A stretch of 64,000 nt of DNA from a virus, in the IMG/VR virus record IMGVR_UViG_3300032898_000001, positions 31,532 to 95,531 of that record, one strand, 5' to 3'. A program made the position numbers and the translations under genes. This document shows positions 30,319 through 63,195 of the stretch, piece by piece. The notes below the pieces were generated by a model that was given only the letters and a program-made list of their open reading frames with translations, had not been told where the DNA came from and did no database searches. How positions within the stretch are numbered: position 1 is the first letter of the stretch; every line of letters begins with the position of its first letter.

Positions 30319-31242
30319 TCACGACCGCTCCCGCAGCTCGGTCAAGGTGCGGGCCAGGTTCGCGATCTCGACCTGGGTCTCGAGCTTCCCGACCCAGCGC
30401 CACGGCCAGGCGCTGGCGCCCCAGCGGACCCCGAGCAGGCCGCCCGCGATCGCGCCGGTGGTGTCGGCGTCGTGGCCGCGGTTGACGAGCTGGACGAGGG
30501 TGTCCTCGGCGGGCTGGTCCTGCTGCAGGGCCCAGATCGCGCACTTCAGGGAGTCGATCACGTAGCCGTGGGTGTTGAGCTTCGTGATCTTCAGGTCGGG
30601 AGAGACCTGCAGGGCCTCCCGCACCTCGGGGTGCAGGTTCAGCGGGTCGTGCAGGACCCGGTTCAGTGCCGCCTTCACGGTCAGGCCCTCGATCAGCCAG
30701 GCCGCGACCTCGTTGTAGGCGAGGCAGGCGGTGGTGCAGCGCGAGTCGTAGTGGGTGACCGCGCTGATGTCGAGGGACTGGGCCTCCCGGTTCCAGCGGT
30801 CTCGCACCGCCAGGGCGGTGGGCAGGCAGCGCATCAGGGAGCCGTTGCCCGCGGAGCCCGGATCCTTCAGACTGGCGTTGCGGCCGCTCGTGACCGGGTC
30901 CCCGGTCCGCGCGAGCTCGGTCAGGGCCCGCTTCGTGAGGCCGCCCACGTCGTGCGGGTTGCCGGCGGCCCAGCGCAGGAAGTTGTTGGCTACCCGGTCG
31001 AGGGAGTATCCCGCGGCGTAGGCCCGGGCGACGGCCAGGGTCAGGTCGGTGTCGTCGGTCGGCTCCCCGCGCCGCCACTTCAGGATGCCGCCGCCGACGA
31101 TCTCGCGGTGCACGCCGTACCGGGCCTGGATGGAGATGGGATTCAGGAACTCGGTGGTGGCTCCCAGGGCGTCGCCGACGGCGACCCCCAGGAGCCCGCC
31201 GAGAACGCGGTCGTGGGTGGTGAGAGTGGTGATGGTGCGCAC
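30319..31242 (-). CDS. ADP-ribosylglycohydrolase (DraG/ARH family)
   Basis: [41 protein letters not shown]. Confidence 0.95.
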
Positions 31243-31704
31243 GGTGCTTCCTTCCTGTTCCGGGTCAGATCGTCTCAACGCCCGTGATGATCACGGAGCT
31301 GTGAGTGAACGTGGGCTGGGCGGGAGCCGGGTTCGCGGCACCGGAGATCAAGGCCAGGGCGAGTCCCGCCGCGACGAGGCCGAGGGCGCTCACGCCGAGG
31401 CCCCACCTCGCGTCGCCGCGGTAGTAGGTGACGGGGCCCGCGACCATCGCGATCGCGCCCACGATCAGGTCGAACCAGAGGGCCTGGCTCATCGGGTCGC
31501 CTCCGCCCACGCGACGTCGAAGGCGTGGTTGGCCAGGCTCTCGGCCTCGGTCTCGCTCCGGCGAGTGACGGCGACGGTGACCTCGATGCCGCTGGGCGTG
31601 GTGGCGGAGACCGTGACCCGGTAGTGGCGGTTGATGATGCCGATCGGCTGGGTCTCGATGCGAGCCTGCATGGTAACTCCCTGGTCCGTTTTGCTGTTAG
31701 GACA

Positions 31705-47802: not shown

Positions 47803-49296
47803 ATGGCCGAGTCGCTCTCGGAGATCAAGCTCGAGCGGCTCAAGCACCTCAGGGACCTGCGTGCCGAGCGTCACCGGATCGAGTCCGGTGACGCTCTCAA
47901 GCGTGACTGGCGCGACATCGCTCGGCCCGACCAGCTCCCGCCCGACGGAAACTGGTTCGTCTGGTTGATCCTGGCCGGCCGAGGCTGGGGCAAGTCCCGG
48001 ACCGCGGCCGAGTTCGTCGCCGCCCGCGCCCGGAAATACCCCGGCTCCCGTCAGGCCCTCATCGGCAAGACCATCGGTGACACTCGTGACGTCATGGTCG
48101 AGGGCGAGTCCGGTCTGCTCAGCTGCATCAAGGCCAGTGAGCTCCGCGGCGGTAGCGTCGACTCGGGCTGGAACCGGTCACTGGGGGAGCTGTACCTGGC
48201 CAACGGCAGCCGGTTCGACACCTACGCCAGTGAGAAGCCCTGGCGGCTTCGTGGCCCCCAGTTCCACGGGGCCTGGGCGGACGAGTCCTGCTTCTGGGTG
48301 GACGCCCACAAGGGGACCATGGCGGACACGACCTGGTCCAACCTCACCATCGCCTGCCGCCTCCCGCGGCGCCCGAACTGGCCGGACGACTTCAAGGTCC
48401 AGGTGGTCGTCGCCACCACCCCGCGCCCGGTCGCGCTCCTGCGCGTCAGTGACCCGAACATGATGGCCCCCGGCCTGATGCAGCGTGAGAGCACCATCAT
48501 CACCCGGGGTCGCACGGTCGACAACCTCGCGAACCTCAGCGAGTCTTACAAGGCCAACGTCGTCGCCCCGCTTCTCGGCACCCAGCTCGGTCGACAAGAG
48601 CTTGACGCCGAGATCCTCGAGAACCGGGAAGGCGCGCTGTGGAAGCGCGACTGGATCGACGAGACCCGGCAGGAACCCGTGCCCGCCCCCGACTTCGTTC
48701 GCGTCGTCGTTGGCGTCGATCCGGCCGTCACGTCCGGGGAGGCCAGTGACCTCACCGGCATCGTCGTCGCCGGTGCCGACCGCAACGGCCAGGGCTACAT
48801 CCTCGCCGACTACACCATGCGCGGCACCCCGATGGAGTGCATGAACAAGGTCGTCTGGGCGTTCAACGAGCACAAGGCCGACCGTGTCGTCGCCGAGGTC
48901 AACAACGGCGGTGACTACATCGGCACCCTGCTCCACACCGTCGACCCCGACATCCCGTACCGGCCGGTCCACGCCAGCCGCGGCAAGGCCATCCGCGCCG
49001 AGCCGATCTCGTCCATGTATGAGCAGAAGCGGTTCCACCACCTCGGGTTCTTCCCACAGCTCGAGGACGAGCTCGTGACCTGGGCCCCGATCGACCCGGA
49101 GTCACCGAACCGTCTCGACGCCCTGGTCTGGGCGTGCACCGACCTCAAGGACCTCATCTCGGGCTCCTGGCTGGACGCCTACGGCATCATCAAGTGCGGC
49201 CACTGCCACAAGCCGTTCATGAACAAGAACAACGGGGTCCTCCGGGACCGCTGCCCGCACTGCAGCCACCCCATCCCCCAGCAGGAGGTCGCGTGA
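47803..49296 (+). CDS. Terminase large subunit
   Basis: AGRGWGKSR, LRGPQF..AWADE, VATTP, GRQEL, VGVDPA, AEVNNGG, SPNRLDA. Confidence 0.95.
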   Translation: MAESLSEIKLERLKHLRDLRAERHRIESGDALKRDWRDIARPDQLPPDGNWFVWLILAGRGWGKSRTAAEFVAARARKYPGSRQALIGKTIGDTRDVMVEGESGLLSCIKASELRGGSVDSGWNRSLGELYLANGSRFDTYASEKPWRLRGPQFHGAWADESCFWVDAHKGTMADTTWSNLTIACRLPRRPNWPDDFKVQVVVATTPRPVALLRVSDPNMMAPGLMQRESTIITRGRTVDNLANLSESYKANVVAPLLGTQLGRQELDAEILENREGALWKRDWIDETRQEPVPAPDFVRVVVGVDPAVTSGEASDLTGIVVAGADRNGQGYILADYTMRGTPMECMNKVVWAFNEHKADRVVAEVNNGGDYIGTLLHTVDPDIPYRPVHASRGKAIRAEPISSMYEQKRFHHLGFFPQLEDELVTWAPIDPESPNRLDALVWACTDLKDLISGSWLDAYGIIKCGHCHKPFMNKNNGVLRDRCPHCSHPIPQQEVA

Positions 49297-49870: not shown

Positions 49871-52800
49871 GTGGCCAGTCGCAGGGCAATCATCCGGGCC
49901 GCCAAGGCCTCGGCCCCGTCCGGGCGTCCCACCCTGGGACCGCAGGGAGCGCAGCCGTACTTCGGTGCGGTTTCCCCGGTCGCCATGCAGAACCAGGTCG
50001 ACAACGGCTACGCCTACACGTACGGCAGCTTTCTTCCCCGGCCTCCCGAGACCTTCACTCAGGGCGCGTTCGGCCCGTTCAGCCCGATCCTGCCGGTCCC
50101 GGTCGACACCCCGACCGAGTCCGGTCGCGCCGAGCCGCGTCGCGAGCAGTACGAGGTCGGCTGGGACCTTCCGGTCGGGGAGCCCGGCACCGAGGGCATC
50201 AAGCTGGCCACGTTCCCGACCTTGCGGACCCTGGCCGACCTGTACTCGGTCGCTCGGGCCTGCATTCAGACCCGTAAATCGGAGGTCCGCGGCCTCGAGT
50301 GGGACATCATGCCCACCGCCGACGCCGCGAAGGCCAACAAGGGCAACGAGAAGTGGTTCCGGGACTTCGGCCAGCGCCGCGCCCAGGCCATGAAGTTCTT
50401 CCGCCGCCCCGACCCCGACTACTTCTCGTGGAACACGTTCATCGACGCGTTCCTCGAGGAGATCTTCGTCTTCGACGCGCTCTCTCTGTACCTACGCCCC
50501 AAGCGCGGCAAGGGGATGCGGAAGGGTCTCCTGGGCAGTGACCTGGACTCCCTGGAGCTGCTCAGTGGCCCGACCATCCGACCGCTGTACGGCATTCACG
50601 GTGAGTTCCCGCGGCCCCCGGCTCCGGCCTACCAGCAGTACCTGTACGGTGTGCCCCGGTCCGACTTCATGCGCATGGTCACCCAGGCCGACATCGAGGA
50701 CGCCGGCCTGGCCGGCAGTGCCTGGGGCCAGTTCCGCGGGGACCAGCTCCTGTACCTGCCGATGAACCCGCGCCGGTGGACCCCGTACGGTTTCCCGCCC
50801 ATCGAGCGCGCCCTGATCCCGGTCATGTCCGGCCTGCAGAAGCAGGGATACGCCCTGGACTTCTTCCGGGAGGGCACGGTCCCGGCCGTGTATGTCTCGC
50901 CCGGGGACCAGTCCATGACCCCGAACCAGATCCGGGAGCTCCAGGACGCCCTGAACGCGTTCGCCGGGGACCCGGCGTTCCACCACAAGATCATCGTGTT
51001 GCCCGCCGGCTCCAAGACCATGCCGCAGCGCGACGCGCAGCTCGCCGACCAGTTCGACGAGGTCGTCATGAACCAGGTGTGCATGGCGTTCGACGTCATG
51101 CCCATGGAGCTCGGCATCTCGCCCAAGGTCAGCACCACGATGTCCCCGGGCGCGTCGAACCAGATGGCCAAGATGACCGCGAGCACCGCGGAACGGAAGA
51201 GCACCAAGCCTCTCCTGGCCTACATCTGCGACATCATGAACCAGATCCTGCAGAACGTGGCCGGTCAGGACGACATGGAGTTCGTCTTCGAGGGCCTCGA
51301 GGAGGAAGAGGACCAGGAGCAGCTCACCCAACTTCTCACCCAGCAGATCACCAACGGCATCCGCAGCATCGACGAGGCCCGGGACGAGCTCAACCTGCAG
51401 CCCTGGGGCCTGCCCGAGACCAGCGGCCCCGTCTACCTCAGCCCGACCGGCCCGATCCCGTTCGGGTCCGTTCCGCTCACGCAGGCCCCGGCTCCCGGCG
51501 AGCCGGGGTCACCCGGCAACCCGGCACCCGCCGCCCCGAAGCCCGGAGAGGCCCCGGTCGCCGGCGGTTCCGGAGAGGACGGGGAGGGACCGGCCGCGCC
51601 TCCCGGCAAGCCGAAGCCTCAGCCCACCCCGAGCGGCGGGGACGGCAAGAACTCGCCCGGTCACGCCGCGGCCGAGGCCGCCGACAGCCAGGAGGGTCGT
51701 CAGGCCAGCCGGGCGGGCATGGCCAGCGGCGTCAAACGAGGTGAGGCCTCCGAGAAACCGAGCGAGAAGCCCGCCAACGCCCCCGACAAGAAGTCCACCA
51801 CCTCGTCGACCAAGTTCGTCGTCCCGGCCGGGCTCGAGAAGGCCGTCGACAATGAGCTCGAGGCGCTCAGCCGGCACCTGCGCAAGGGCCGTCAAATCAG
51901 CACGTGGGCCCCAAAGAACGTGCCTCAGGTGACCCTGGCCTGCATCAGTCAGCACCTGGCCAAGGGCCTTGGGGTTGACGCGGCCGTCGCGATCGCCAAG
52001 ACCACGACCCTGGCGCCGCCGGCCGCTCCCCCGCAGCCGGCTCAGGCCCAGACCGTGCCGCCTCCCCCGCCGACCACCGGCGCGAACTGGGCGGGCTGGG
52101 TCAAGGACGCCGCCCTGGCCGACCTCTACGCGCACCTCATCACCGGCGCGTTCCACAAGAGCTTCCACGACGTGGCCGCCCTCGGGGCCGGGGTCCTGAA
52201 CGGCAGCGTGGCGGTCACTCACCAGGTCCTCAAGGGCCTCCTTCACTCCTCGATCGGCAAGCACGTCGGGCCGGTCCTGCAGGACCTGTGGCACGAGGCG
52301 TGGTACCTCGGTGACCGTGCCGGCCAGGCCGCGGTCACCAAGTCCCCGGTCGACTGGGGCCACTGGCAGCTCGGCAAGCCCGGCACGGCCCCGCTCGGGG
52401 AGACCGCTCACGTCTTCGAGAAGACCGTGCTCGGTCCGGGCCTCGAGGTCGCCAACGGGATCGCCGACACGCGACTCGAGCAGGTCGCGCAGGCCATGCG
52501 AGACAGCGACACGCCCGAGGCCCTCAGCCAGAAGCTCAGTGACCTGCTCGACGTTACCAACCGCGCCCTGATGATCGCGCAGACCGAGACCACGCGCCTC
52601 TCCTCGTTCGCGGCCATGAACCGGTACGGCATCGCCGGGGTCATGAAGATCGAGTGGAACGTGGAGCCCGGTGCCTGCGCGGTCTGCCGTGGCAACGCTG
52701 CCCAGGACCCGATCCCGGTCGGGGACGTGTTCAAGTCCGGGGCCGCGGCTCCCCCTCAGCATCCTCGTTGTAGATGTTCCATAGAACCCATGGCCTTCGC

Positions 52801-55090
52801 CGGCGACCTCACCAAGAGCACCGCCCTGGCCGAGCGCCGCGTCGCGATCAACGGCCAGGAGGGCTGGTACGACCCGTACAACGCGGCCGGCGGCGGTGGG
52901 CAGTCCCCGGTTCGGCACTGGGGTGACGGCACCCAGGCCCCCGACGGGGTCCCGGTCACCGGCGGCGTCCCGGGCAACAGCGCCGGCGGGGACTACCCGC
53001 GCTGGGACACCCCGGTCGCGAACGGCTACCAGGGCGGGCTCAACGACCTCAGCGACCCGCGAAACCCGGCCCAGGGGCACGTCAGCGGCAACGACGCCAG
53101 CCAGCCCTACGGGGTCTCTCACCAGACCGACGTGAACGCCCGATCCGCCGTCGGGGTCAACGCCCCGGCCGCGGACCGCTGGCCGTCCGGCCAAACCCAG
53201 ACCGACCAGCCGCCCGGGGTCGTCAACGCACGCCCCGGAGAGGACCCGATCCGCGGGTCGTGGGGCACCACGCAGAAGGCCACCGGGATCGTCGCCGCCG
53301 GGATCGCGGTCCTCGCCGAGAACACCGGCCGGGTCCTCATGCTGCAGCGAGCGATGGGAGACGACGACCCGGCAGCTGGTTACTGGGAGTTCCCGGGAGG
53401 CTGCCTCGAGCCCGGTGAGAACGCGCTGCAGGCGGCCAAGCGCGAGTGGCAGGAGGAAGTCGGGGTCCACCTCCCGGCCGGTACCGTCACCAACCGCTGG
53501 GACGCGTCCAACGGCAAGTACGTGGGATTCGTCTACACGGTCCCGGACGAGAACGGGATCCCGCTGTTCGAGGGCCGGCGGGACGTGCCGAACCCGGACG
53601 ACCCGGACCGGGACGCCGTGGAGGCCGTTGCCTGGTGGGACCCGAGCCACCTGGCCGGGAACCCGGCCATCCGGCCCGAGCTGAAGAGCGACCTCGACGA
53701 CGTGCTCGACGCGCTCGGTCAGGTCACGAAGGCCGCCACAGGCTACCTCGACGGCCCGACCGCGACCCCGGCCGAGGTCCGGGAGGTCATGGCCAAGAAC
53801 TTCCCGCCGGAGGCCCTCACCTGGCTGGCCGACGCGACGTGGCACGGCCCGATGCCGGTCCCCCTGGCCGACATCGACTTCAGCAACGAGAAGACCTGGG
53901 CGGCCCACCACCAGGTCGCGCACGACGATGAGTTCGTGCAGCGGCTCCGGGATGGGGAGAAGCTCAACCCGATCATCCTCATCGACACGCCCAAGCAGCA
54001 CGACTTCATGATCGTGGACGGCCACCACCGGGCCCTGGCCTACCGCAAGCTCGGTGAGAGCCCGATCGCGTACGTCGGCACGACCACCTCCCCGACCGGG
54101 CCGTGGGACGAGACCCACTCGTACCAGCTCAGCCAGGGAGCCAAGGAAGCCAACAAGGCCGCGACCGCCGACACGGTGAAGATCGGTCCCGAGGGCTACG
54201 TCCACGGGTGGATCAAGGTGGGAGTGGGAGTCGACTCAACTCACCTCTCCGTGAAGAAGAATGGCGACGTCGTTCACAAGCCCACCGGCGAGGTCTTGGG
54301 TCACGTCGAGAGGCACGAAGACAGCCCTCGCAAGGGAACCACCACCTTCATCACGCACCACGCCGACGGGACCAAGACGTACGACGGGATCTATAAGCGA
54401 GAGGCCCTGGCCTCGGTCGCGCAGCACCACAACCAGACGGTCCACGCCACGGCCTTGCCGAAGACCGAGGTGGAGCCGCACCCGGCCGTAGACCTGACGC
54501 CTCAGCCCCTGAGTGAGGTCACGTCATCGTCCCCGGTGGGAAGCGCTCAGTGGCGAGCTGACCAGTTGATGACTCAGATCATCAAGGAGGGACCAGCTCA
54601 CCCTCAGACACCACTCAAGGCCATCACGGCCATGCCGCAGGTGGGCAACGACGACAAGGTCCGCGCTGGCTACAAGCTCGCTGAGCACACGATCAAGGTC
54701 CGTAACGACGTCATCCACGGCAAGAACAAGCGCACCAACCTGCCCGGGTGGAACACGCCGACGGGAACCGCGTCCTCGGAGCACGCGACCCTGACCCACG
54801 AGTACGGTCACCACCTGATGTACGCGATGAGCGAGGACCAGTACCAGGACATGCTGAAAGACCTGAACCAGACGATGGGAACGCACCTCAGCGGTACCCG
54901 GTTCGGGTCGGTGCCGATCTCACCTCAGGACAAGGCCCGGATCGTGAACCGCGTTGGCACGTACGCGTCCGCCAACAACAAGGAGCTTATCGCCGAGCTC
55001 TACGCGGAACACCAGCTCTCCCCGAACCCGCGTCCCGCGGCGCAGGTCGTCGGCAAGCACCTCTTCGCGGCTCACGGAGGCGCTCAGTGA
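49871..55090 (+). CDS. Portal protein fused to MuF, Nudix, ParB-like and zincin metallopeptidase domains
   Basis: Portal (YGFPPIE, FFREGTVP, AFDVMPMELG, IDEARDELNLQP); MuF (IAQTETTR..CAVC..PPQHPRCRC); Nudix (WEFPGG..EPGE..AAKREWQEEVG); ParB (IVDGHHRALA); THEYGH..YA...KELIAE. Confidence 0.9.
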   Translation: MASRRAIIRAAKASAPSGRPTLGPQGAQPYFGAVSPVAMQNQVDNGYAYTYGSFLPRPPETFTQGAFGPFSPILPVPVDTPTESGRAEPRREQYEVGWDLPVGEPGTEGIKLATFPTLRTLADLYSVARACIQTRKSEVRGLEWDIMPTADAAKANKGNEKWFRDFGQRRAQAMKFFRRPDPDYFSWNTFIDAFLEEIFVFDALSLYLRPKRGKGMRKGLLGSDLDSLELLSGPTIRPLYGIHGEFPRPPAPAYQQYLYGVPRSDFMRMVTQADIEDAGLAGSAWGQFRGDQLLYLPMNPRRWTPYGFPPIERALIPVMSGLQKQGYALDFFREGTVPAVYVSPGDQSMTPNQIRELQDALNAFAGDPAFHHKIIVLPAGSKTMPQRDAQLADQFDEVVMNQVCMAFDVMPMELGISPKVSTTMSPGASNQMAKMTASTAERKSTKPLLAYICDIMNQILQNVAGQDDMEFVFEGLEEEEDQEQLTQLLTQQITNGIRSIDEARDELNLQPWGLPETSGPVYLSPTGPIPFGSVPLTQAPAPGEPGSPGNPAPAAPKPGEAPVAGGSGEDGEGPAAPPGKPKPQPTPSGGDGKNSPGHAAAEAADSQEGRQASRAGMASGVKRGEASEKPSEKPANAPDKKSTTSSTKFVVPAGLEKAVDNELEALSRHLRKGRQISTWAPKNVPQVTLACISQHLAKGLGVDAAVAIAKTTTLAPPAAPPQPAQAQTVPPPPPTTGANWAGWVKDAALADLYAHLITGAFHKSFHDVAALGAGVLNGSVAVTHQVLKGLLHSSIGKHVGPVLQDLWHEAWYLGDRAGQAAVTKSPVDWGHWQLGKPGTAPLGETAHVFEKTVLGPGLEVANGIADTRLEQVAQAMRDSDTPEALSQKLSDLLDVTNRALMIAQTETTRLSSFAAMNRYGIAGVMKIEWNVEPGACAVCRGNAAQDPIPVGDVFKSGAAAPPQHPRCRCSIEPMAFAGDLTKSTALAERRVAINGQEGWYDPYNAAGGGGQSPVRHWGDGTQAPDGVPVTGGVPGNSAGGDYPRWDTPVANGYQGGLNDLSDPRNPAQGHVSGNDASQPYGVSHQTDVNARSAVGVNAPAADRWPSGQTQTDQPPGVVNARPGEDPIRGSWGTTQKATGIVAAGIAVLAENTGRVLMLQRAMGDDDPAAGYWEFPGGCLEPGENALQAAKREWQEEVGVHLPAGTVTNRWDASNGKYVGFVYTVPDENGIPLFEGRRDVPNPDDPDRDAVEAVAWWDPSHLAGNPAIRPELKSDLDDVLDALGQVTKAATGYLDGPTATPAEVREVMAKNFPPEALTWLADATWHGPMPVPLADIDFSNEKTWAAHHQVAHDDEFVQRLRDGEKLNPIILIDTPKQHDFMIVDGHHRALAYRKLGESPIAYVGTTTSPTGPWDETHSYQLSQGAKEANKAATADTVKIGPEGYVHGWIKVGVGVDSTHLSVKKNGDVVHKPTGEVLGHVERHEDSPRKGTTTFITHHADGTKTYDGIYKREALASVAQHHNQTVHATALPKTEVEPHPAVDLTPQPLSEVTSSSPVGSAQWRADQLMTQIIKEGPAHPQTPLKAITAMPQVGNDDKVRAGYKLAEHTIKVRNDVIHGKNKRTNLPGWNTPTGTASSEHATLTHEYGHHLMYAMSEDQYQDMLKDLNQTMGTHLSGTRFGSVPISPQDKARIVNRVGTYASANNKELIAELYAEHQLSPNPRPAAQVVGKHLFAAHGGAQ

Positions 55091-56178
55091 CGACGAAGCA
55101 GGCCACGGCGAACCACCTCTCCAAGCTGATCGTTGAGCTGCGAGGTGAACCTCAGACGAACGAGGTCCGCTCAGCTCTCGACAAGCTGAAGAGCCAGTTC
55201 TCCCAGCTGAAGAACCTGCCGGTGACCAAGTCCGCCGAGACCCCTGAGCTCGCTAGCACCCACCGCCCGCTCGGCACCCACGGTCTCTGGGGCGACCGGG
55301 ACGCGCAGCTCCCGGCCTACATCCAGAACATCGCCCACGCGATGATCAAGGACGGGCACGACGAGTCGTCCGCGATCGCCCTGGCGATCGGGGCCGTGAA
55401 GCGCTGGGCCGCCGGTGAGGGCAAGGTCACTCCCGAGGTGCAGGCCGCGGCGACCGCCGCCCTGGCCGAGTGGGAGAAGCTCAAGGCAGAGCACAACAAG
55501 ACGAAGGCCGTCGACACGGACTTCATCAAAGTAGGACCTCACGGTTACGTTCACGGCTGGGTCAAGGTCGGTACCACGGAGCCAACCATCCCGCACGATA
55601 CGGCGGTTGAGGTATCACGTGCTCTCAACGGCCAGGGATCCATGCCTCGCAGCAAGATGGCTACGAGTGTCAAGCTAGGCGTGAAGGAATGGACTCGAGG
55701 AGGCACATCACAGAAGTCTCTATTTCCACAAGATCTCGCTAACTTTCACGCAGTTGTCAGTCACGCTTCCGCTAATGCACCAAAACTGTATCGTGGTGTT
55801 CACGCGTTTGAAGGAAATAAGAACTGGCCAGCGAGTGATCCAGCGAAGCTTGAGAAGGTGAGGCATCTCGCAGCCTCTAAACCTGGTGACATTATTACAA
55901 ACAACAGGCCTTCTTCTTGGTCTGAAGATGAGAAGGTAGCGCACGATTTCTCGGCTGTTGATCGTCAAATCAGCAGCGTTTCTCCAAACAATGTCGCAGT
56001 TCAGCTAGAACTCGATTCTGGTGCACGAGCGGTGAATATCCAAAAGCATGCACGCTCTGACATGAAATACCAAAAGGAATGGGTCTCGCCACCTTCAAGT
56101 TACCAGGTCACCGCTGTAGAGCCTCATCCCACCATAACCGGTCTTACCGTACTTCACGTTAGGGAGGTGAATGAGTGA
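55087..56178 (+). CDS. Head-module protein with a C-terminal R-S-E ADP-ribosyltransferase-like domain
   Basis: GTGA-coupled start; LPAYIQNIAHAM..KRWAAG module; KVGPHGYVHGWVKVG; LYRG..SSWS..QKEW. Confidence 0.75.
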   Translation: MTTKQATANHLSKLIVELRGEPQTNEVRSALDKLKSQFSQLKNLPVTKSAETPELASTHRPLGTHGLWGDRDAQLPAYIQNIAHAMIKDGHDESSAIALAIGAVKRWAAGEGKVTPEVQAAATAALAEWEKLKAEHNKTKAVDTDFIKVGPHGYVHGWVKVGTTEPTIPHDTAVEVSRALNGQGSMPRSKMATSVKLGVKEWTRGGTSQKSLFPQDLANFHAVVSHASANAPKLYRGVHAFEGNKNWPASDPAKLEKVRHLAASKPGDIITNNRPSSWSEDEKVAHDFSAVDRQISSVSPNNVAVQLELDSGARAVNIQKHARSDMKYQKEWVSPPSSYQVTAVEPHPTITGLTVLHVREVNE

Positions 56179-59100
56179 TCGCGGTAATTGATCTTAGTGA
56201 TCTGCTAGGAAACTGGAATGAGCATCTCGATGAGCCTGGCTTCGACGTCGGTTCGCTAGGTGAGTTGACGATCAAATTCGAGGTACCTGACGTCGTCAAG
56301 GACTCTTTCGAGGGTCACCACATCGCCGGCACCCCGGACACGTACAAGCACGGCTGGATCAAGATCGGCGTCGGCGTCGACTCCTCGCACCTGAGCCTCA
56401 AGAAGAACGGCGACGTGGTTCATAAGCCGACCGGGACCGTGATCGGGCACGTCGACAAGAAGACCGACTTCCCGACCAAGGGCACGAGCACCTTCGTCAC
56501 GTCCCACGCCAACGGCAAGCAGGTCTACAACGGCGTCTACAAGAAGGACGCCATGGCGGCCGTGGCCCGGTACCACAACCACGCCGCGTCGACCGACGCT
56601 CACGCTGCCGAGATCGCACCGACGACTACCGGTCACACGACCCCCGAAGCCGGTATGAACGGGTCGTACTTGCACACAACGAGTGCAGCTAATGCCACGA
56701 AAATCCAGTCCGAGGGATTCAGTCACGGCGAGGGCTACGGGGGTAGCATCGCACACGGCACATACCTATCTGTTGATAAGCCAACCGCGGAGTACTACCA
56801 CGCGCAGATGGGTCCCAACGCGCAGACGCTTTCGGTGACGGTCTCCGGCCTGAAGAACACCGCACATGTATCGTTCGACACGGACAAGTTCCAGATCCCG
56901 ACGGTGTCGGCCGTCGCCCACCAACTCAACCTGCACGACTCATTTGAGAAGAACAAACTTACTTTGAAAGGAACGGTACCGAATACGTCTCTAAACGCTC
57001 ATGCGTTGACTAAGACGTTGCAGGATGCCGGATACGACAGCCTACATATTCATAACCACAACGCTTCCGGAAAGGTGACAAGCGTTGGTGGTAATGAGTT
57101 GGTGGTTTTTGACCCACATCATCTTTCTGTGTCTAAGGCTCCCGGTCACAAGCCCACGCTGAATGATCTTCCCGAGGGGAGTGTCCCGATCATGTCCGGG
57201 ACCCACGTGACCGGCTACAAGGACCCGGCCGGGAACTGGTACGACGACAAGGGCAACCTCACGGTTACGGCACCGAAGAAGCCCGGGGCCCCGAACACGA
57301 CCACACCGAGCTCCAACCCCATCTCGGGAACCACCGTCCCGAAGGCTCTCGCCGGGGAAGACGCGTACCAGCACGCCAAGGCGAGTCAGGGCTACCTGAA
57401 CCCGACGCAGATGAATGCCCTGGCCAAATACGGCCAGCCCGAGGGCTACAAGACCGTGAACCCGTTCCTGAACAAGGACGGCATGGTCTACAACTCCAAC
57501 ATTCAGAAGTATCTGCCGGCGACCGAGGCTCAGACCAAGAGCGCCCAGACGATGATCAAGCATCTCGACGCGGCGTTCGCGACCAGCAAACCCACCACGC
57601 AAGACATGATCGTGCATCGTCGGATCGGGGACGGCGATCTTCTTCTCGGTCCTCCCGGTTCCCACGTGGGCAAGGTCTTCCACAACAAGGCCTACGTCTC
57701 CACGACGACCGCGACCGGCGGGATCCCTGGCAACGGCTACGGGTATGAGAACAAGAAGACCCTGCTGGACATTCAGGTCCCGACGGGAAGCAAGGTTCTC
57801 ATGGGCCAGGCAGCCGAGAAAGAGGTCATCCTCCCCCGGGGCGCCAAGTTCACGGTCGTGCACGACGAGGTGGAGCCCGACGGGACCCGCCACGTCAAGC
57901 TGCTCTACCATCCGGAAGACACCCCGTCGGCCGCGGTCCCGAAGACCAAGCCGGTCGCGAAGCCCGAGGTGACCCCGGCTCACGTTCCCGCGGCCGTGGC
58001 CCCGGTTCCCGGAGGCGGTGGCAAACCCGAGGGCACCATGAGCCTCAAGAAGAACGGGGAGCTCAAGGGGTACTACCACCTCGAGAACCACACGGTCTAC
58101 GACGTCAACGGCAACCCCATCGGCACGAGCCTCAGCAAGATCGGGGCCTTGCACCTCGCGAGCGGAAAGCACGAGACGGCCGCGGAGCTCGGTGCTCACG
58201 CCACCGTCACCGCCCCGGACGTCCCGGTACCGGCCGCATCCAGCGAGGACAACGAGGCCCTGGCCAAGCAGCTCAGTGACCACGCCATCGCCATGGAAGA
58301 CACCATGGAGGAGTCACCGGATCTCAACAGCGCGGTGCATCACATGGTTCAGGCCGCGGGATCGATCAGCAGCGGGAAGAAGAACCAGGCTCTCTCCTAC
58401 CTGTCGGCGGCCAAGAAAGATCTTTACTACCACGGCCAGGCGGAACCGGGTGACGCCGACTCGGTCAGCAGCTACCAGCATCACATCAGTCAGATCGAGA
58501 ACAAGCTTAACAACACTGAAGTCCCGTCACCGGCCGTACCTGACGTGGACCACGAACTAGTCAAGAAGATCGAAGACCATGCTGAGGCCATGGACGGCAA
58601 CCTGCATGACTCTACGTACCTTCCCCTGGCCGTCTTGAACACCAAGAAGGCCGCGGATCATTTGAAGAAGGGTAACAAGAAGGGCGCCGTCAATCATCTC
58701 GACCTAGCGTCCGTTCAGCTCAGCTCTCACGCGAAGGTTGAGCCAGACGACGCCGAGGGAGTAGCTCAGTTCCAGCAGCACTTTGAGCAGTTCAAAAACA
58801 AGATCAACGGTGATAGCTCCCCGTTGATTCCCGCTTCGGTGCACATCCCGGCCGGATCGATGATCGACTCCACCGACCTGTCGATGAAGACCAACGGCTA
58901 CATCGTTCACAAGCAGTCCAAGAAGGTCATCGGGCACGTCGAGAAGCAGAAAGACTTCCCCTCCAAGGGAACGACCACGTTCACGGTCACCCACAACGAC
59001 GGCACCAAGGTCTACACCGGCCCGTACAAGGGGAAGTCCCTGGCCGCTCTGGCTCAGCACCACAACACGCAGGGCAGCACGGCCTTCGACCCGTCCAACA

Positions 59101-60053
59101 TGATCACGTACCACGACGTCGACACGAAGAAGCCAATCGGTCACTGGGACAACGCGACCAACGACGTCTACGACACGTCAGGCAACAAGATCGGGAACAC
59201 CTCAATTCCTAAGAAGGCCAAGGAGTTGATGGAGGCGAGCGTCAACAAGCCGGCCGGTCCACCGGCCGGGGCTGAGCCCGTCCTGGACAAGTACGGGACG
59301 GGTGACGTCATCGGGTACCACCACCCCCAGACGGGTCAGGTCACGAACCCGCAGGGCTACGTCGTGGGGTACGCGGGTGACAAGAAGACCGCGGCTAAGC
59401 AGCTTCTCAACGCTCAAGCCAAGGCCAAGGCTCCCAGCGTCAAGCCCGCCTCTAGTTCCGATACCGGGTACCACGGCAACATCAAGCTGCAGCCCGAGGA
59501 AGCCGCGGGAGTCAAGGGAGTCCGAGCCTCAATCGCTCACCCGGTCATCAGCTCGGCGGAAAAGAACGCGGCTCTCCTGTACAGCGGCTCCGACTACAAG
59601 GCGATGAACTGGTACGTCTCCAACGGGTACCAGTTCGGCAGCAAGTTCGACTACCACACGCAGCGTGAGAAAGACCTGATCAAGGATGCGGTTGACGACC
59701 TCGTACCGGCCATCAACCGGTCCGTCGTCAAGAAACCGTTCGCGGTCAACCGTCGCATTCCCGCTCACGCCGCGGTGGAGACGTTTGGCCAGGTCGGTTC
59801 TCGTGTTGGCAAGAGCTACAAGGAAAACCGGTTCGTGTCGACGACCGTTTCCGCACATGGTATCGGCTCATTCGGTGAGGCCGAGATCCACTACCACATG
59901 AAACCCGGTGCCAAGGCACTGGACCTGAACAACTACGACGCGAGCAAGCACCCCAACGAAAAAGAGATCTTGCTCGGTCCCGGACAGTCATTCAAGGTCA
60001 TCAGCGACAAGATGCTCGGTAAAACTCGCGTCATCGAAGTGGAGTCTCAATGA
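56175..60053 (+). CDS. Polyvalent protein with three ADP-ribosyltransferase domains (one H-Y-E type, two VIP2-like)
   Basis: YLHTT..GTYLS..AEYY..GYDSL..NELVVFDP; Y..YK.VN..VHRR..YVSTT..AEKEVILPRG; YSGSDYKAMN..VNRR..FVSTT..NEKEILL. Confidence 0.85.
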   Translation: MIAVIDLSDLLGNWNEHLDEPGFDVGSLGELTIKFEVPDVVKDSFEGHHIAGTPDTYKHGWIKIGVGVDSSHLSLKKNGDVVHKPTGTVIGHVDKKTDFPTKGTSTFVTSHANGKQVYNGVYKKDAMAAVARYHNHAASTDAHAAEIAPTTTGHTTPEAGMNGSYLHTTSAANATKIQSEGFSHGEGYGGSIAHGTYLSVDKPTAEYYHAQMGPNAQTLSVTVSGLKNTAHVSFDTDKFQIPTVSAVAHQLNLHDSFEKNKLTLKGTVPNTSLNAHALTKTLQDAGYDSLHIHNHNASGKVTSVGGNELVVFDPHHLSVSKAPGHKPTLNDLPEGSVPIMSGTHVTGYKDPAGNWYDDKGNLTVTAPKKPGAPNTTTPSSNPISGTTVPKALAGEDAYQHAKASQGYLNPTQMNALAKYGQPEGYKTVNPFLNKDGMVYNSNIQKYLPATEAQTKSAQTMIKHLDAAFATSKPTTQDMIVHRRIGDGDLLLGPPGSHVGKVFHNKAYVSTTTATGGIPGNGYGYENKKTLLDIQVPTGSKVLMGQAAEKEVILPRGAKFTVVHDEVEPDGTRHVKLLYHPEDTPSAAVPKTKPVAKPEVTPAHVPAAVAPVPGGGGKPEGTMSLKKNGELKGYYHLENHTVYDVNGNPIGTSLSKIGALHLASGKHETAAELGAHATVTAPDVPVPAASSEDNEALAKQLSDHAIAMEDTMEESPDLNSAVHHMVQAAGSISSGKKNQALSYLSAAKKDLYYHGQAEPGDADSVSSYQHHISQIENKLNNTEVPSPAVPDVDHELVKKIEDHAEAMDGNLHDSTYLPLAVLNTKKAADHLKKGNKKGAVNHLDLASVQLSSHAKVEPDDAEGVAQFQQHFEQFKNKINGDSSPLIPASVHIPAGSMIDSTDLSMKTNGYIVHKQSKKVIGHVEKQKDFPSKGTTTFTVTHNDGTKVYTGPYKGKSLAALAQHHNTQGSTAFDPSNMITYHDVDTKKPIGHWDNATNDVYDTSGNKIGNTSIPKKAKELMEASVNKPAGPPAGAEPVLDKYGTGDVIGYHHPQTGQVTNPQGYVVGYAGDKKTAAKQLLNAQAKAKAPSVKPASSSDTGYHGNIKLQPEEAAGVKGVRASIAHPVISSAEKNAALLYSGSDYKAMNWYVSNGYQFGSKFDYHTQREKDLIKDAVDDLVPAINRSVVKKPFAVNRRIPAHAAVETFGQVGSRVGKSYKENRFVSTTVSAHGIGSFGEAEIHYHMKPGAKALDLNNYDASKHPNEKEILLGPGQSFKVISDKMLGKTRVIEVESQ

Positions 60054-60381: not shown

Positions 60382-63195
60382 GTGGCTGCGACCCTCACCG
60401 CCGACGGCGAGCTGACGTTCTTCTCGTTTCCCATCGAGAAGAGCGAGGAAACGGCCGACGGCGACGTCATCGTCTACGGGAAGGCGACGGACGGTTCCGT
60501 CGACTCCGACCTGCAGATCGTCGACCCGGACTGGTCGGCCAAGGCCATCGAGGACTGGCTGGACACCGGCGGCAACCTGCGGGTTCAGCACCAGGCTCGC
60601 CGGGACCCGGCCGGGAAGGGCCTCTCCCTCGAGCACGACCCGTCCGGTGGCACCTGGGTCAAGGCCCTGGTCGTGGAGCCGGTGGCCAAGGAGCTCGTCA
60701 AGAAGGGCGTCCTCACCTGCTACTCGGTGGGGATCAGCCACCCGGACATCGTCCCGGACCCGACCGGTAAGGCCATGAACGGCATCATCCGCGGTCGCCG
60801 TGACGGGCTCACCAAGATCTCGGAGCTCTCCCTGGTCGACCGCGGCTCCAACTTCAACAGCAAGTTCCAGCTGGTGAAGGCCGCGGCCGACGACGGTCAC
60901 GCCGAGTTCGTCGGCAAGATGATGGGCGAGACCGACCTCGACGCGTACGCCATGGTCAACTCGCCGAAGGAAACCAAGATCAAGACCACGATCTCGATCA
61001 AGCCCAGTGACCTGGCCAAGCTGCTCGACCAGAAGCACGGCGTCGAGAAGCGGAATTTCGACGCCGGCGTGGGTGGCGGCGTGGACCGCGACAAGCTCCC
61101 GGCGGAGGACTTCGCTGGCCCCAACCGGACCTACCCGATCGTCACCCCCAAGGACGTGCACGACGCCGGCACGCTTATCGGCCACGCCGCCGACCAGGAC
61201 GCCGTCAAGAACAAGATCAAGGCGATCGCTCGGCGGAAAGGTCCCGAGTTCGAGGCCCGGATCCCGGCCTCGTGGAAGACCGAAGACGAGCCCGCGGTCG
61301 TGAAGATCGAGGAGAAGCCGGCCGACAACGCGAAGCCCCTCGAGAAGAAGGCCAAGGTCATCTGCCAGGGCTGCGGCGCCAACCACGACAAGAAGCACTC
61401 CTTCTGCCCGGAGTGCGGCAAGAAGGTCGCGGGTGGCGACCCCGAGGTGAAGAAAAACCACAAGTTCACCTGCCTGGGCTGCAACAGCGACCTCGACAAG
61501 GGCGAGAAGTTCTGCCCGGGATGTGGCAAGAAGAACCCCGGCTTCAACGAGCTCAAGAAGGCCGTACGCGCGGCGCTCAAGGGAGATGACATGGACGACG
61601 AGAAGGACGACGACACCAAGCCGGACAGCGCCGCGGGCGACGACGGCAACGAGGGCGCCTCGGCCACGGACCCGGACGACGAGAGCTCGGACGACGACAA
61701 CGACGCCGACTCCGGTAAGCCGAACCCGGCGGACAAAGTCGTCGACAAGCCCGTCGTGAAGAAGAGCAAGAAGGCGAAGAAGGTCACCAAGGCGACCAAC
61801 GGGGACACGGTCACCGAGGCCGCTCACGCCGAGCACGTCCCGCCGGCCGACGACCTGCCGCCTCACCGCGAGCCCGACGGGACCGTCGTCGCCATCTTCG
61901 AGCGCGACGCCGACATGCCCAGTGACACCACCGGTGACAAGGCCGCCGGCCTGCCGCCGGAGATGGCCGTGCTCAACCGGTTCAAGTCCGTGGGAGTCTC
62001 GACCGACCTCGGTGCGATCCACGACCTCACCTGCCCGGCCTACCACCCGGCCGAAACGAACAAGTGCTTTCCGTACTTCGACCTCACTCAGCTCGACGAC
62101 TCCGCCTGGCAGCAGAAGGCCTTCGACCTGGCCGCATCCGCTCCCCTGGCGCAGGCTCAGCAGGCCACTCGCCTCTGGCAGCACGCCGTCACTCTCAAGA
62201 ACGCGTCCCCCGAGGACGTGCTCGAGATCCGGAACGACCTGCACAAGGCGTTCGCGGACGCCAACCCGGGACCAGGCATGGCCCCGAGTCCCACCCAGCT
62301 GAACCCGAAGAAGTTCAACCGGCCGTACCTCAGCGCCGGGCACGCCGCGGCCTCGCCGGGTCAGGGAGCCCCGAACAAGGCCCCGATGATCGGCTCGGAC
62401 ATCTCGGCCGAGGACTACACGCGGCAGTTCCTGTCGGCCGGTCACGCCGCCGACTCGCCGGCCAACAAGGGCACGGGCGTCCCGACCAACGTCAGCTACG
62501 GCAACCTCAACCGAGAGAACGCGCGGCAGGCCCTGGTCGCCATGCACGACCACATCTCTCAGTCCTTCCCGGCCCTGTGCCCGATGAGTGACGCGGCCTC
62601 CCCGGCCCCGAAGTCGGTGCCGCCAACCGTCGCGGTCAAGGAGGAAGCCGAGCCCGAGGCGAAGAAGGCCCGGCGGAAGAAGCTCGAGAAGGCCGTGCTC
62701 AAGGGGTTCCTCAGCCTCGACGACGCCAAGACGCTCATGGGCTTCGACATCGCGCCCATCCCCGGAGTGCCGCTCGCGGCTGATAGGCCCGCCGAGGTCG
62801 GCAAGGCGGAGGAGCCGGAGGTCACCAAGGCCGCCGTGCTCGACGCCGCGGCCGTGCAGGACATCGTGACCAAGGCCGTGGCCGCCGCCGTCGCGGAACG
62901 CGACGAGGCTCACCTGGCCGCCGTCACGGAGCTGCAGAAGACGCTCAAGAAGCAGGGCAAGATGCTCGACTCGATCGCGGCACAGCCCGACCCGGTCGCC
63001 CCGTACCGCGGGGTGGCCCTCATGAACTCCCCTCAGCCGGGTGCTGAGGTGGTGAAGAGCAGCGCGGAGCGCTCTCGAGAGAACCTGGCAGCCCTGCTCT
63101 ACGAGCAGGCTCGCAAGGACCCGAACCCAGCGCAGCGGGAAGTTGCGTGGGCGGAACTGAACAAGATGGCCTTCGAAAACACCACGTACAAGTAG
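60382..63195 (+). CDS. Prohead (capsid maturation) protease fused to accessory, zinc-ribbon and scaffold regions
   Basis: VYGKATDGSVDSDLQIVD, LRVQH, YSVG, ISELSLVDR (HK97-type protease); RDKLPAEDFAGP..YPI module; four CxxC pairs; coiled-coil C-terminus. Confidence 0.88.
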   Translation: MAATLTADGELTFFSFPIEKSEETADGDVIVYGKATDGSVDSDLQIVDPDWSAKAIEDWLDTGGNLRVQHQARRDPAGKGLSLEHDPSGGTWVKALVVEPVAKELVKKGVLTCYSVGISHPDIVPDPTGKAMNGIIRGRRDGLTKISELSLVDRGSNFNSKFQLVKAAADDGHAEFVGKMMGETDLDAYAMVNSPKETKIKTTISIKPSDLAKLLDQKHGVEKRNFDAGVGGGVDRDKLPAEDFAGPNRTYPIVTPKDVHDAGTLIGHAADQDAVKNKIKAIARRKGPEFEARIPASWKTEDEPAVVKIEEKPADNAKPLEKKAKVICQGCGANHDKKHSFCPECGKKVAGGDPEVKKNHKFTCLGCNSDLDKGEKFCPGCGKKNPGFNELKKAVRAALKGDDMDDEKDDDTKPDSAAGDDGNEGASATDPDDESSDDDNDADSGKPNPADKVVDKPVVKKSKKAKKVTKATNGDTVTEAAHAEHVPPADDLPPHREPDGTVVAIFERDADMPSDTTGDKAAGLPPEMAVLNRFKSVGVSTDLGAIHDLTCPAYHPAETNKCFPYFDLTQLDDSAWQQKAFDLAASAPLAQAQQATRLWQHAVTLKNASPEDVLEIRNDLHKAFADANPGPGMAPSPTQLNPKKFNRPYLSAGHAAASPGQGAPNKAPMIGSDISAEDYTRQFLSAGHAADSPANKGTGVPTNVSYGNLNRENARQALVAMHDHISQSFPALCPMSDAASPAPKSVPPTVAVKEEAEPEAKKARRKKLEKAVLKGFLSLDDAKTLMGFDIAPIPGVPLAADRPAEVGKAEEPEVTKAAVLDAAAVQDIVTKAVAAAVAERDEAHLAAVTELQKTLKKQGKMLDSIAAQPDPVAPYRGVALMNSPQPGAEVVKSSAERSRENLAALLYEQARKDPNPAQREVAWAELNKMAFENTTYK

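Follow-up and report, generated by a model that had tools for sequence, protein, structure and literature searches.

Arginine-free tethers beside predicted ADP-ribosyltransferase domains in a phage head-module protein and in unrelated phage fusions

DraT/DraG and Tre1/Tri1 are ADP-ribosyltransferase (ART) toxins that come with eraser or inhibitor immunity. Here we describe a predicted phage ART protein of 1292 amino acids (aa), encoded by an open reading frame (ORF) at 56175-60053 (+) of a 64,000-nucleotide window, the whole stretch of DNA that was analysed. The window takes up the final 64 kb of a phage genome of 95,531 bp in one contig (IMG/VR record IMGVR_UViG_3300032898_000001), which has direct terminal repeats and 65.8% GC. 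Outside its two ART domains the protein is almost devoid of arginine, a feature that may protect it from its own enzymes.

The protein belongs to known kinds, those of the VIP2-like ARTs and the head-module polyvalent effectors. T4 Alt is an ExE ART that is carried in the head, enters the host along with the DNA and modifies arginines of host proteins (PMC3102197). The window protein probably shares Alt's packaging and specificity, judging from gene position and motifs. Alt differs in showing no arginine avoidance and in having a single ART and no long repeat tether, and it was not among the similarity matches to the window ART domains. Polyvalent and MuF- or portal-fused effectors (PMC5512222; Zhang et al. 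2012, PMC3482391) are similar in that several effector domains occur in a head-module polypeptide beside portal or MuF, predicted to be packaged and injected. The window protein likewise has two effector (ART) domains in one head-module-encoded polypeptide, and possibly a third domain besides. Iyer et al. (2017, PMC5512222) place typical polyvalent-protein ARTs outside the R-S-E Alt/VIP2 clade, unlike the R-S-ExE VIP2-like domains found here, and a term search of their paper found no mention of compositional bias or arginine avoidance.

The Listeria pair of an ART and an ADP-ribosylglycohydrolase (ARH; PDB 8za7) is comparable because its producer must also cope with its own ExE ART, and a model of the second window ART domain matches the 8za7 ART with a template modelling (TM) score of 0.70. 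ART-eraser and ART-inhibitor systems differ in that they rely on enzymatic or binding protection, whereas that proposed here for the tether is compositional. The nearest conceptual parallel is the lysine paucity of toxin A chains which translocate from the endoplasmic reticulum; with a strong Arg/Lys skew they evade host ubiquitination, ie a modification is escaped by lacking the acceptor residue (PMC4030972). The present case concerns the opposite residue, with a catalytic domain of the same polypeptide as the presumed modifier and a purge limited to the tether. Literature searches for arginine-poor or arginine-free ARTs and for Lys-rich MuF linkers returned nothing relevant, and as far as they show an arginine-purged tether on ART effectors is undescribed.

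Arginine content of the protein and its homologues

The features at issue are as follows (R, K, H and C denote arginine, lysine, histidine and cysteine).

56175..60053 (+), polyvalent head-module protein with two predicted VIP2-like ART domains, 1292 aa; 13 R, 0 C, 113 K, 72 H
57342..57926 (+), predicted ART domain 1 (ART1), aa 390-584, with R482/R483 (VHRRIG), STT and ExE (EKE 548-550); 4 R, 17 K
57891..59522 (+), Arg-free stretch, aa 573-1116, 544 aa; 53 K, 32 H, 0 R, 0 C
59463..60050 (+), predicted ART domain 2 (ART2), aa 1097-1292, with R1193/R1194 (VNRRIP), STT and ExE (EKE 1262-1264); 8 R, 18 K

The translation contains 1.01% R, 8.75% K, 5.57% H and no C. The arginines are at aa 132, 482, 483, 555, 572, 1117, 1164, 1182, 1193, 1194, 1210, 1219 and 1285, and 12 of the 13 fall within the two ART domains as defined by their hidden Markov model (HMM) envelopes (aa 390-584 and 1097-1292). 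The non-ART part of the protein, 928 residues, has one R, 80 K and 58 H. The genome background was taken from a crude gene call based on GC at third codon positions (GC3), which gave 82 ORFs of at least 100 aa with median values of 7.5% R, 2.9% K and 2.4% H and a pooled R/(R+K) ratio of 0.66. The ratio for the 1292-aa protein is 0.10, the lowest among the sizeable ORFs of the 95.5-kb genome. A binomial test puts the chance of finding no more than 13 R among the 126 basic residues at 4e-39 for the genome background of 0.66, and at 7e-8 for the Lys-rich head-module neighbours (ratio 0.30). The GC3 of the gene is 0.80 and 97 of its 113 Lys codons are AAG, so that the skew lies at the protein level and does not reflect simple AT-rich import; AAG is one transition away from AGG, and these 97 codons are present despite the 66% GC of the genome. 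An earlier note, made from the letters of the window alone, had counted about 13 Arg and no Cys, 12 of the arginines in or beside the VIP2 domains, and a stretch of about 540 aa using Lys and His instead, in a high-GC genome whose other proteins are Arg-rich. The exact counts bear it out, as do the ratios across ORFs that it proposed to compare.

Public protein collections yielded only a small family of homologues. No match was found when the whole protein or region was compared with the phage collection by tblastn and megablast, or when IMG/VR was scanned with the single protein and with the orthologue alignment. Every large ART-bearing member of the family has an Arg-free run of 353-811 aa, which adjoins an ART domain and nearly always lies directly upstream of the C-terminal one.

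P0002, orthologue, Arg-free run of 473 aa
P0003, orthologue, Arg-free run of 517 aa
P0004, orthologue, Arg-free run of 811 aa
P0005, more distant, Arg-free run of 353 aa
P0007, more distant, Arg-free run of 744 aa
P0008, more distant, Arg-free run of 713 aa
P0009, more distant, Arg-free run of 482 aa
P0013, more distant, Arg-free run of 649 aa

In the same eight homologues Lys amounts to 6-9% and His to about 5-6%, and Cys is absent or nearly so. Homologues that share the Arg-free state have diverged to 23-59% identity. In pairwise alignment columns of the ART families, 4.3% (23/532) and 1.1% (1/87) of the replaced lysines were exchanged with Arg, compared with 20% for the portal and 27% for the terminase of the same phage pair.

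A beta-module of about 68 aa, which occurs both with and without an ART, allowed a direct comparison.

56334..56585 (+), HGW tag and beta-module copy 1 of the ART protein, aa 54-137; 55% identical to aa 1440-1545 of the portal fusion
58863..59072 (+), beta-module copy 2 of the ART protein, aa 897-966; 0 R, 10 K
49871..55090 (+), portal-MuF-NUDIX fusion, 1739 aa, non-ART comparator; its beta-module copy (aa 1454-1521, nt 54230-54433) keeps 3 R

The 17 copies in long ART proteins contain 5 R and 131 K (0.3 Arg per copy), whereas the five in non-ART proteins (the portal fusion, the MuF proteins P0010 and P0011, P0012, and the hydrolase fusion P0014) contain 17 R and 29 K (3.4 Arg per copy), the arginines being at conserved positions. 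The portal fusion reads GHVERH, SPRKG and YKRE, and the ART protein has GHVDKK, FPTKG and YKKD in one copy and GHVEKQ, FPSKG and YKGK in the other. The earlier note had remarked on R in the portal-fusion repeat and K or T in the ART protein, and had suggested comparing ART with non-ART homologues; the census generalises the first observation and its per-copy values supply the second. The sole non-ART arginine of the protein, R132, lies in copy 1 and is invariant among the orthologues.

An AlphaFold2 (AF2) model of aa 573-1292, built from a 10-row alignment, had a mean predicted local distance difference test score (pLDDT) of 65.5. It begins with a disordered segment of about 117 residues, which is followed by two four-helix bundles, the beta-module and a helix, small hairpin repeats and finally ART2, so that the tether is predicted to be arranged as beads on a string. 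Taken together, the alignments argue that Arg depletion is maintained by selection, and not by drift or foreign import.

Recurrence in other phages, and controls

Cultured phages with head-module fusions were found through distant tblastn matches to the ART domains. A wider survey used IMG/VR loci; word-index searches with ART1 and the MuF domain returned few proteins. Long Arg-free spacers were present in the following.

Streptomyces phage Intolerant gp9, 1187 aa, GC3 0.94; Arg-free run of 591 aa upstream of a C-terminal ExE ART
Xanthomonas phage Xp12 MuF-ART protein, 1192 aa, GC3 0.96; Arg-free runs of 430 and 204 aa with one R between, upstream of a C-terminal ExE ART
Microbacterium phage Rasovi gp5, 976 aa, GC3 0.87; Arg-free runs of 289 and 132 aa upstream of a C-terminal ExE ART
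P0018 (metagenomic), Arg-free over 525 aa; spacer strongly acidic, 5.9% K
L018 (metagenomic), Arg-free over 771 aa with 83 K; its own ART domain has 15 R and 1 K
L028 (metagenomic), Arg-free over 438 aa
L015 (metagenomic), Arg-free over 208 aa

These spacers have no detectable similarity to one another or to the family of the window protein. All the Arg-free spacers are net-neutral or acidic, and a reading of them as histone-H1-like polycations was rejected for that reason. They contain 6-15% K, and in the window phage's family His is about twice background. All 16 (window 57891-59522; L003, L005, L006, L015, L018, L028; P0002-P0018) also lack Cys over their 208-811 aa.

A threshold-free comparison of the 200 aa upstream of the ART gave a median R/(R+K) of 0.195, against a local background of 0.575 (16 lineages, Wilcoxon p = 6e-4). 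In a tree of the ART domains, whose deep nodes are unsupported, positive lineages are interspersed with negative ones. These sequences point to a convergent origin, the Arg-free tether having apparently arisen repeatedly in non-homologous tethers of phage ART fusions.

The pattern was absent from 78 non-ART MuF or portal-MuF proteins (80 IMG/VR MuF loci), in which the longest Arg-free run was 147 aa. Ten non-ART C-terminal extensions of MuF proteins had a ratio of 0.45 against a background of 0.48, which is not significant. Jera gp5 has an N-terminal minor-capsid domain 70% identical to that of Rasovi gp5, and a different, non-ART C-terminus with an Arg-rich linker. Apart from Jera, relatives of the Xp12 and Rasovi MuF domains were mostly MuF-only with no tether, and were uninformative. 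What the sequences show is thus the low arginine, its conservation, the scarcity of Lys-to-Arg exchange and an association with ART cargo.

ART specificity, genome setting and possible erasers

The 1292-aa protein matched Pfam PF03496 (ADPrib_exo_Tox) in two stretches with 80.2 bits (cut-off 23.4), and the domains scanned singly gave 49.6 and 41.7 bits. R, S-T and E-x-E are invariant columns in the alignment of the ART domains. A four-sequence ART profile matched Vip2, iota Ia, CDTa, C2I, BECa and Certhrax in the PDB; phmmer with single ART domains found no match there. The fold evidence covers ART2 only, the AF2 model of which (domain pLDDT about 75-90) was matched by Foldseek to CDTa, C3bot, Vip2, iota Ia, Certhrax and 8za7_B, at E values around 1e-8 to 1e-9 and a highest TM of 0.70.

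Both domains have ExE rather than QxE, the motif being EKE with a Glu two residues before the catalytic Glu. The ExE motif determines arginine specificity in ARTs (Laing et al. 2010, PMC3102197), and the T-phage Alt and Mod enzymes are listed as promiscuous (PMC3102197). Certhrax, the top profile match, has Q-x-E at this position, and therefore sequence kinship alone does not fix the motif. From the R-S-ExE signature, both domains are probably arginine-specific. In the orthologue P0004 the catalytic Arg pair of the second ART is replaced (FMVQGNITQ, vs VxRR in the others) and STT-like and ENE motifs remain; this domain may be inactive.

A further segment of the window protein could be a third domain.

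56622..57164 (+), insertion specific to the 1292-aa protein, aa 150-330 (about 180 aa); zero Arg, absent from the orthologues

Its ESM Atlas score was 0.92 to viral clusters in which 22-24% of members have PF18760 (ART-PolyVal), and its motifs LHTTS, GTYLS and NELVVF are compatible with an H-Y-E triad. The segment had no Pfam match and its hhalign probability against the R-S-E profile was below 1%. It is a lead only, to a candidate H-Y-E (ART-PolyVal-like) domain.

The head module is ordered terminase (47803-49296), portal-MuF-NUDIX fusion, a 363-aa protein (ORF363), the 1292-aa ORF and a zinc-ribbon protein. A related 91-kb phage contig (L002), which carries P0007, is syntenic, and its counterpart of the zinc-ribbon protein has a weak Pfam match, below the cut-off, to the S78 prohead protease. 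The neighbours used as comparators, and a candidate eraser gene, are as follows.

55087..56178 (+), ORF363, a Lys/His-rich head-module protein of 363 aa; ordinary Arg, about 4%
60382..63195 (+), Lys-rich zinc-ribbon protein, 937 aa; R 3.4%, K 9.5%
30319..31278 (-), ADP-ribosylglycohydrolase, 319 aa, PF03747 with 213 bits, in the non-structural region

ORF363 corresponds to a listed 476-aa ORF, 54748-56178 (+), that overlaps the portal fusion. Its true start is likely the GTG at 55087, which lies behind GGAGG and overlaps the portal stop (GTGA), and this correction gives 363 aa. Its last 220 or so codons (55500-56175) have a GC3 of only 0.44-0.54, which suggests recent acquisition of the C-terminal segment. 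The motifs LYRG, SSWSED and QKEWV hint at a QxE ART, for which Pfam and hhalign gave no support (the C-terminus against the ART profile had a probability below 1%), and no use is made of ORF363 as an internal QxE control.

The PF03747 hydrolase is, by its sequence, a candidate eraser of ADP-ribosylation; since the phage encodes it, ADP-ribosylation would be something that the phage manages. The ARH and ART genes are not adjacent, being 25 kb apart and on opposite strands. An ARH gene also occurs in the related 91-kb contig and in Intolerant, and none was found in Rasovi, Xp12, L018 or the five negative phages. An inverse relation between an ARH eraser and an Arg-free tether was thus rejected, with ARH in 3/6 positive and 0/5 negative phages. 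Adjacent genes were found on a metagenomic contig (L001:693-4956 (+)), in the order RtcB, a small ORF, an ARH gene and, 23 bp later, P0006, a 390-aa protein which joins the module to an ExE ART and has normal Arg. This locus, which is not a head-module gene, is an ART-eraser pair with the same module and ART2-type domain as the window protein. The strand opposite the Xp12 MuF-ART gene carries, about 1.2 kb downstream of it, a gene annotated COG3236 (L006:9725-10213 (-)). COG3236 corresponds to the NADAR family of ADP-ribose-processing enzymes, and the gene would thus be another possible eraser.

Proposed avoidance of self-modification, and competing explanations

The explanation we favour is that tethers lying exposed next to promiscuous arginine-specific ARTs are kept free of arginine and would thereby avoid self-ADP-ribosylation; we put its chance at about even. 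The 1292-aa protein would be head-module cargo, probably packaged in the virion given the position of its gene, in which two VIP2-like R-S-ExE mono-ADP-ribosyltransferase domains are attached to a tether of disordered linkers and small folded modules. An exposed tether Arg, at high local concentration beside such an enzyme, would be ADP-ribosylated in cis or in trans, either in the NAD-containing producer cell or after ejection. Each modification would add bulk and two negative charges, to the detriment of packaging, ejection or activity. Selection would have stripped arginine from the tether, leaving Lys, His or neutral residues instead, and the arginines that remain would be catalytic or structural in the ART folds, apart from the one invariant module residue.

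Escape from self-ADP-ribosylation had been suggested in the earlier note, and that idea finds partial support here and is strengthened in one respect because the pattern is convergent. It is also consistent with depletion that is selected and that tracks ART cargo in the family and in unrelated phages, with the R-S-ExE signature and with the ARH gene. The idea needs narrowing in two respects: the purge is limited to the tether and repeat region rather than extending over the whole polyprotein, and not all ExE ARTs need it.

A number of observations weigh against self-modification as the cause. About half of the sampled phage ART fusions show no depletion. L019/20/22/23, L024/25, L026, L027 and VPv64 are not depleted, RP180 shows no more than a Lys-rich segment of 50 aa with 1 R and 10 K, and Soondubu, IAmGroot and L021 are only partly depleted. 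With 32 R and 51 K, T4 Alt reaches a ratio of 0.39, and its neighbours 0.31. In the three short relatives P0006, P0015 and P0016 the module keeps its three arginines and is joined directly to an ExE domain of the ART2 type, and P0017 has 4.6% R. The LigT, NUDIX and portal parts of long polypeptides keep 5-10% Arg, and L018 illustrates that ART domains themselves can hold many arginines. The absence of Cys from all the Arg-free spacers is not explained by self-ADP-ribosylation. The lineage counts are small, the background ratios depend on crude ORF calls and the deep nodes of the ART tree lack support. Finally, a tape measure-like protein of the same phage (G000:C1:10234-13350 (+), outside the window; 1038 aa) has 1.4% R and 4.6% K, a ratio of 0.24, with a 366-aa Arg-free run containing 27 K, and the tape measure proteins of Soondubu, Rasovi, IAmGroot and the ART-less Jera are Arg-poor too. 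Low Arg can therefore arise without an ART and is not diagnostic alone; the specific signature is Lys in place of Arg along a lengthy tether that adjoins an ART. Other virion proteins of the window phage are Arg-poor (1.2-2.8%) yet Lys-poor also. The earlier note had named equally low Arg in non-ART ejected proteins as an outcome that would count against it, which the tape measure protein supplies in part.

The tape measure proteins speak for a constraint of a physical kind that acts on tail-lumen proteins and long cargo tethers alike, by which contact with packaged DNA, or unfolded sliding through an acidic portal and tail channel, would favour the weaker, mobile contacts of Lys over bidentate Arg, the ART being simply the cargo most often long-tethered. 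Other head-module proteins are Lys-rich as well, with ratios of 0.26-0.37, and long non-ART tethers are few as controls because the MuF-only relatives are tetherless. However, Arg is kept in the non-ART cargo or linkers of Jera gp5, P0010, P0011, P0012, P0014, L052, L079, the C-terminus of the portal fusion, ORF363 and L002_743, and identical modules differ in Arg solely by their linkage to an ART. The Arg-free runs of tape measure proteins are, moreover, mostly charge-poor and not the product of Lys-for-Arg replacement (Jera has 4 K in 304 aa). We consider this constraint an unlikely cause.

Positive selection for Lys and His, by which these residues would, for example, fill the ART cleft as a non-modifiable pseudosubstrate up to the time of release, be cut by the prohead protease or accept some other modification, is consistent with the raised K of all the spacers and the doubled H in the window phage's family. 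The spacer of P0018 is nevertheless Arg-free although strongly acidic and with K near the bottom of the range, and Lys enrichment alone predicts neither zero Arg nor suppressed K-R exchange. The non-ART neighbours, equally Lys/His-rich, keep 3-5% Arg, and selection of this kind seems to us decidedly improbable. A neutral legacy, ie a gene or repeat unit that came from a Lys-rich donor of lower GC, or arose by amplification of an Arg-free unit, and has yet to equilibrate, would fit the local GC of 0.59-0.62 over 54-60 kb, the GC3 of 0.80 (about 0.9 elsewhere), the low GC3 of the adjacent ORF363 C-terminus and a tether built from internal repeats, but can be given very little credence, for the Arg-free state is kept at 23-59% identity with K-R exchange specifically missing, it recurs with native codon usage (GC3 0.94 in Intolerant, 0.96 in Xp12), the depletion is significant even against a ratio of 0.30, the 5.6% His is not a low-GC trait, and the one recently transferred shared spacer which it needs is hard to reconcile with spacers lacking detectable mutual similarity.

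A wider proposition, which we hold more tentatively and rate somewhat below even, is that the purging of acceptor residues is general among tethered enzymes that modify proteins promiscuously, and has evolved repeatedly as a form of self-immunity. In head-delivered phage arginine ARTs it would produce Arg-free tethers of 200-800 aa even at 65-70% GC, and such a compositional hole beside an uncharacterised modifying domain would predict the target residue. If self-modification is indeed what the present tethers avoid, their purge would represent a third route by which a producer tolerates its own ART, the other two being eraser enzymes and inhibitor proteins. It would also provide a cheap sequence signature for the acceptor-residue specificity and promiscuity of uncharacterised ARTs, and would mark those ART fusions that probably act as promiscuous enzymes of host takeover and not as single-target toxins.

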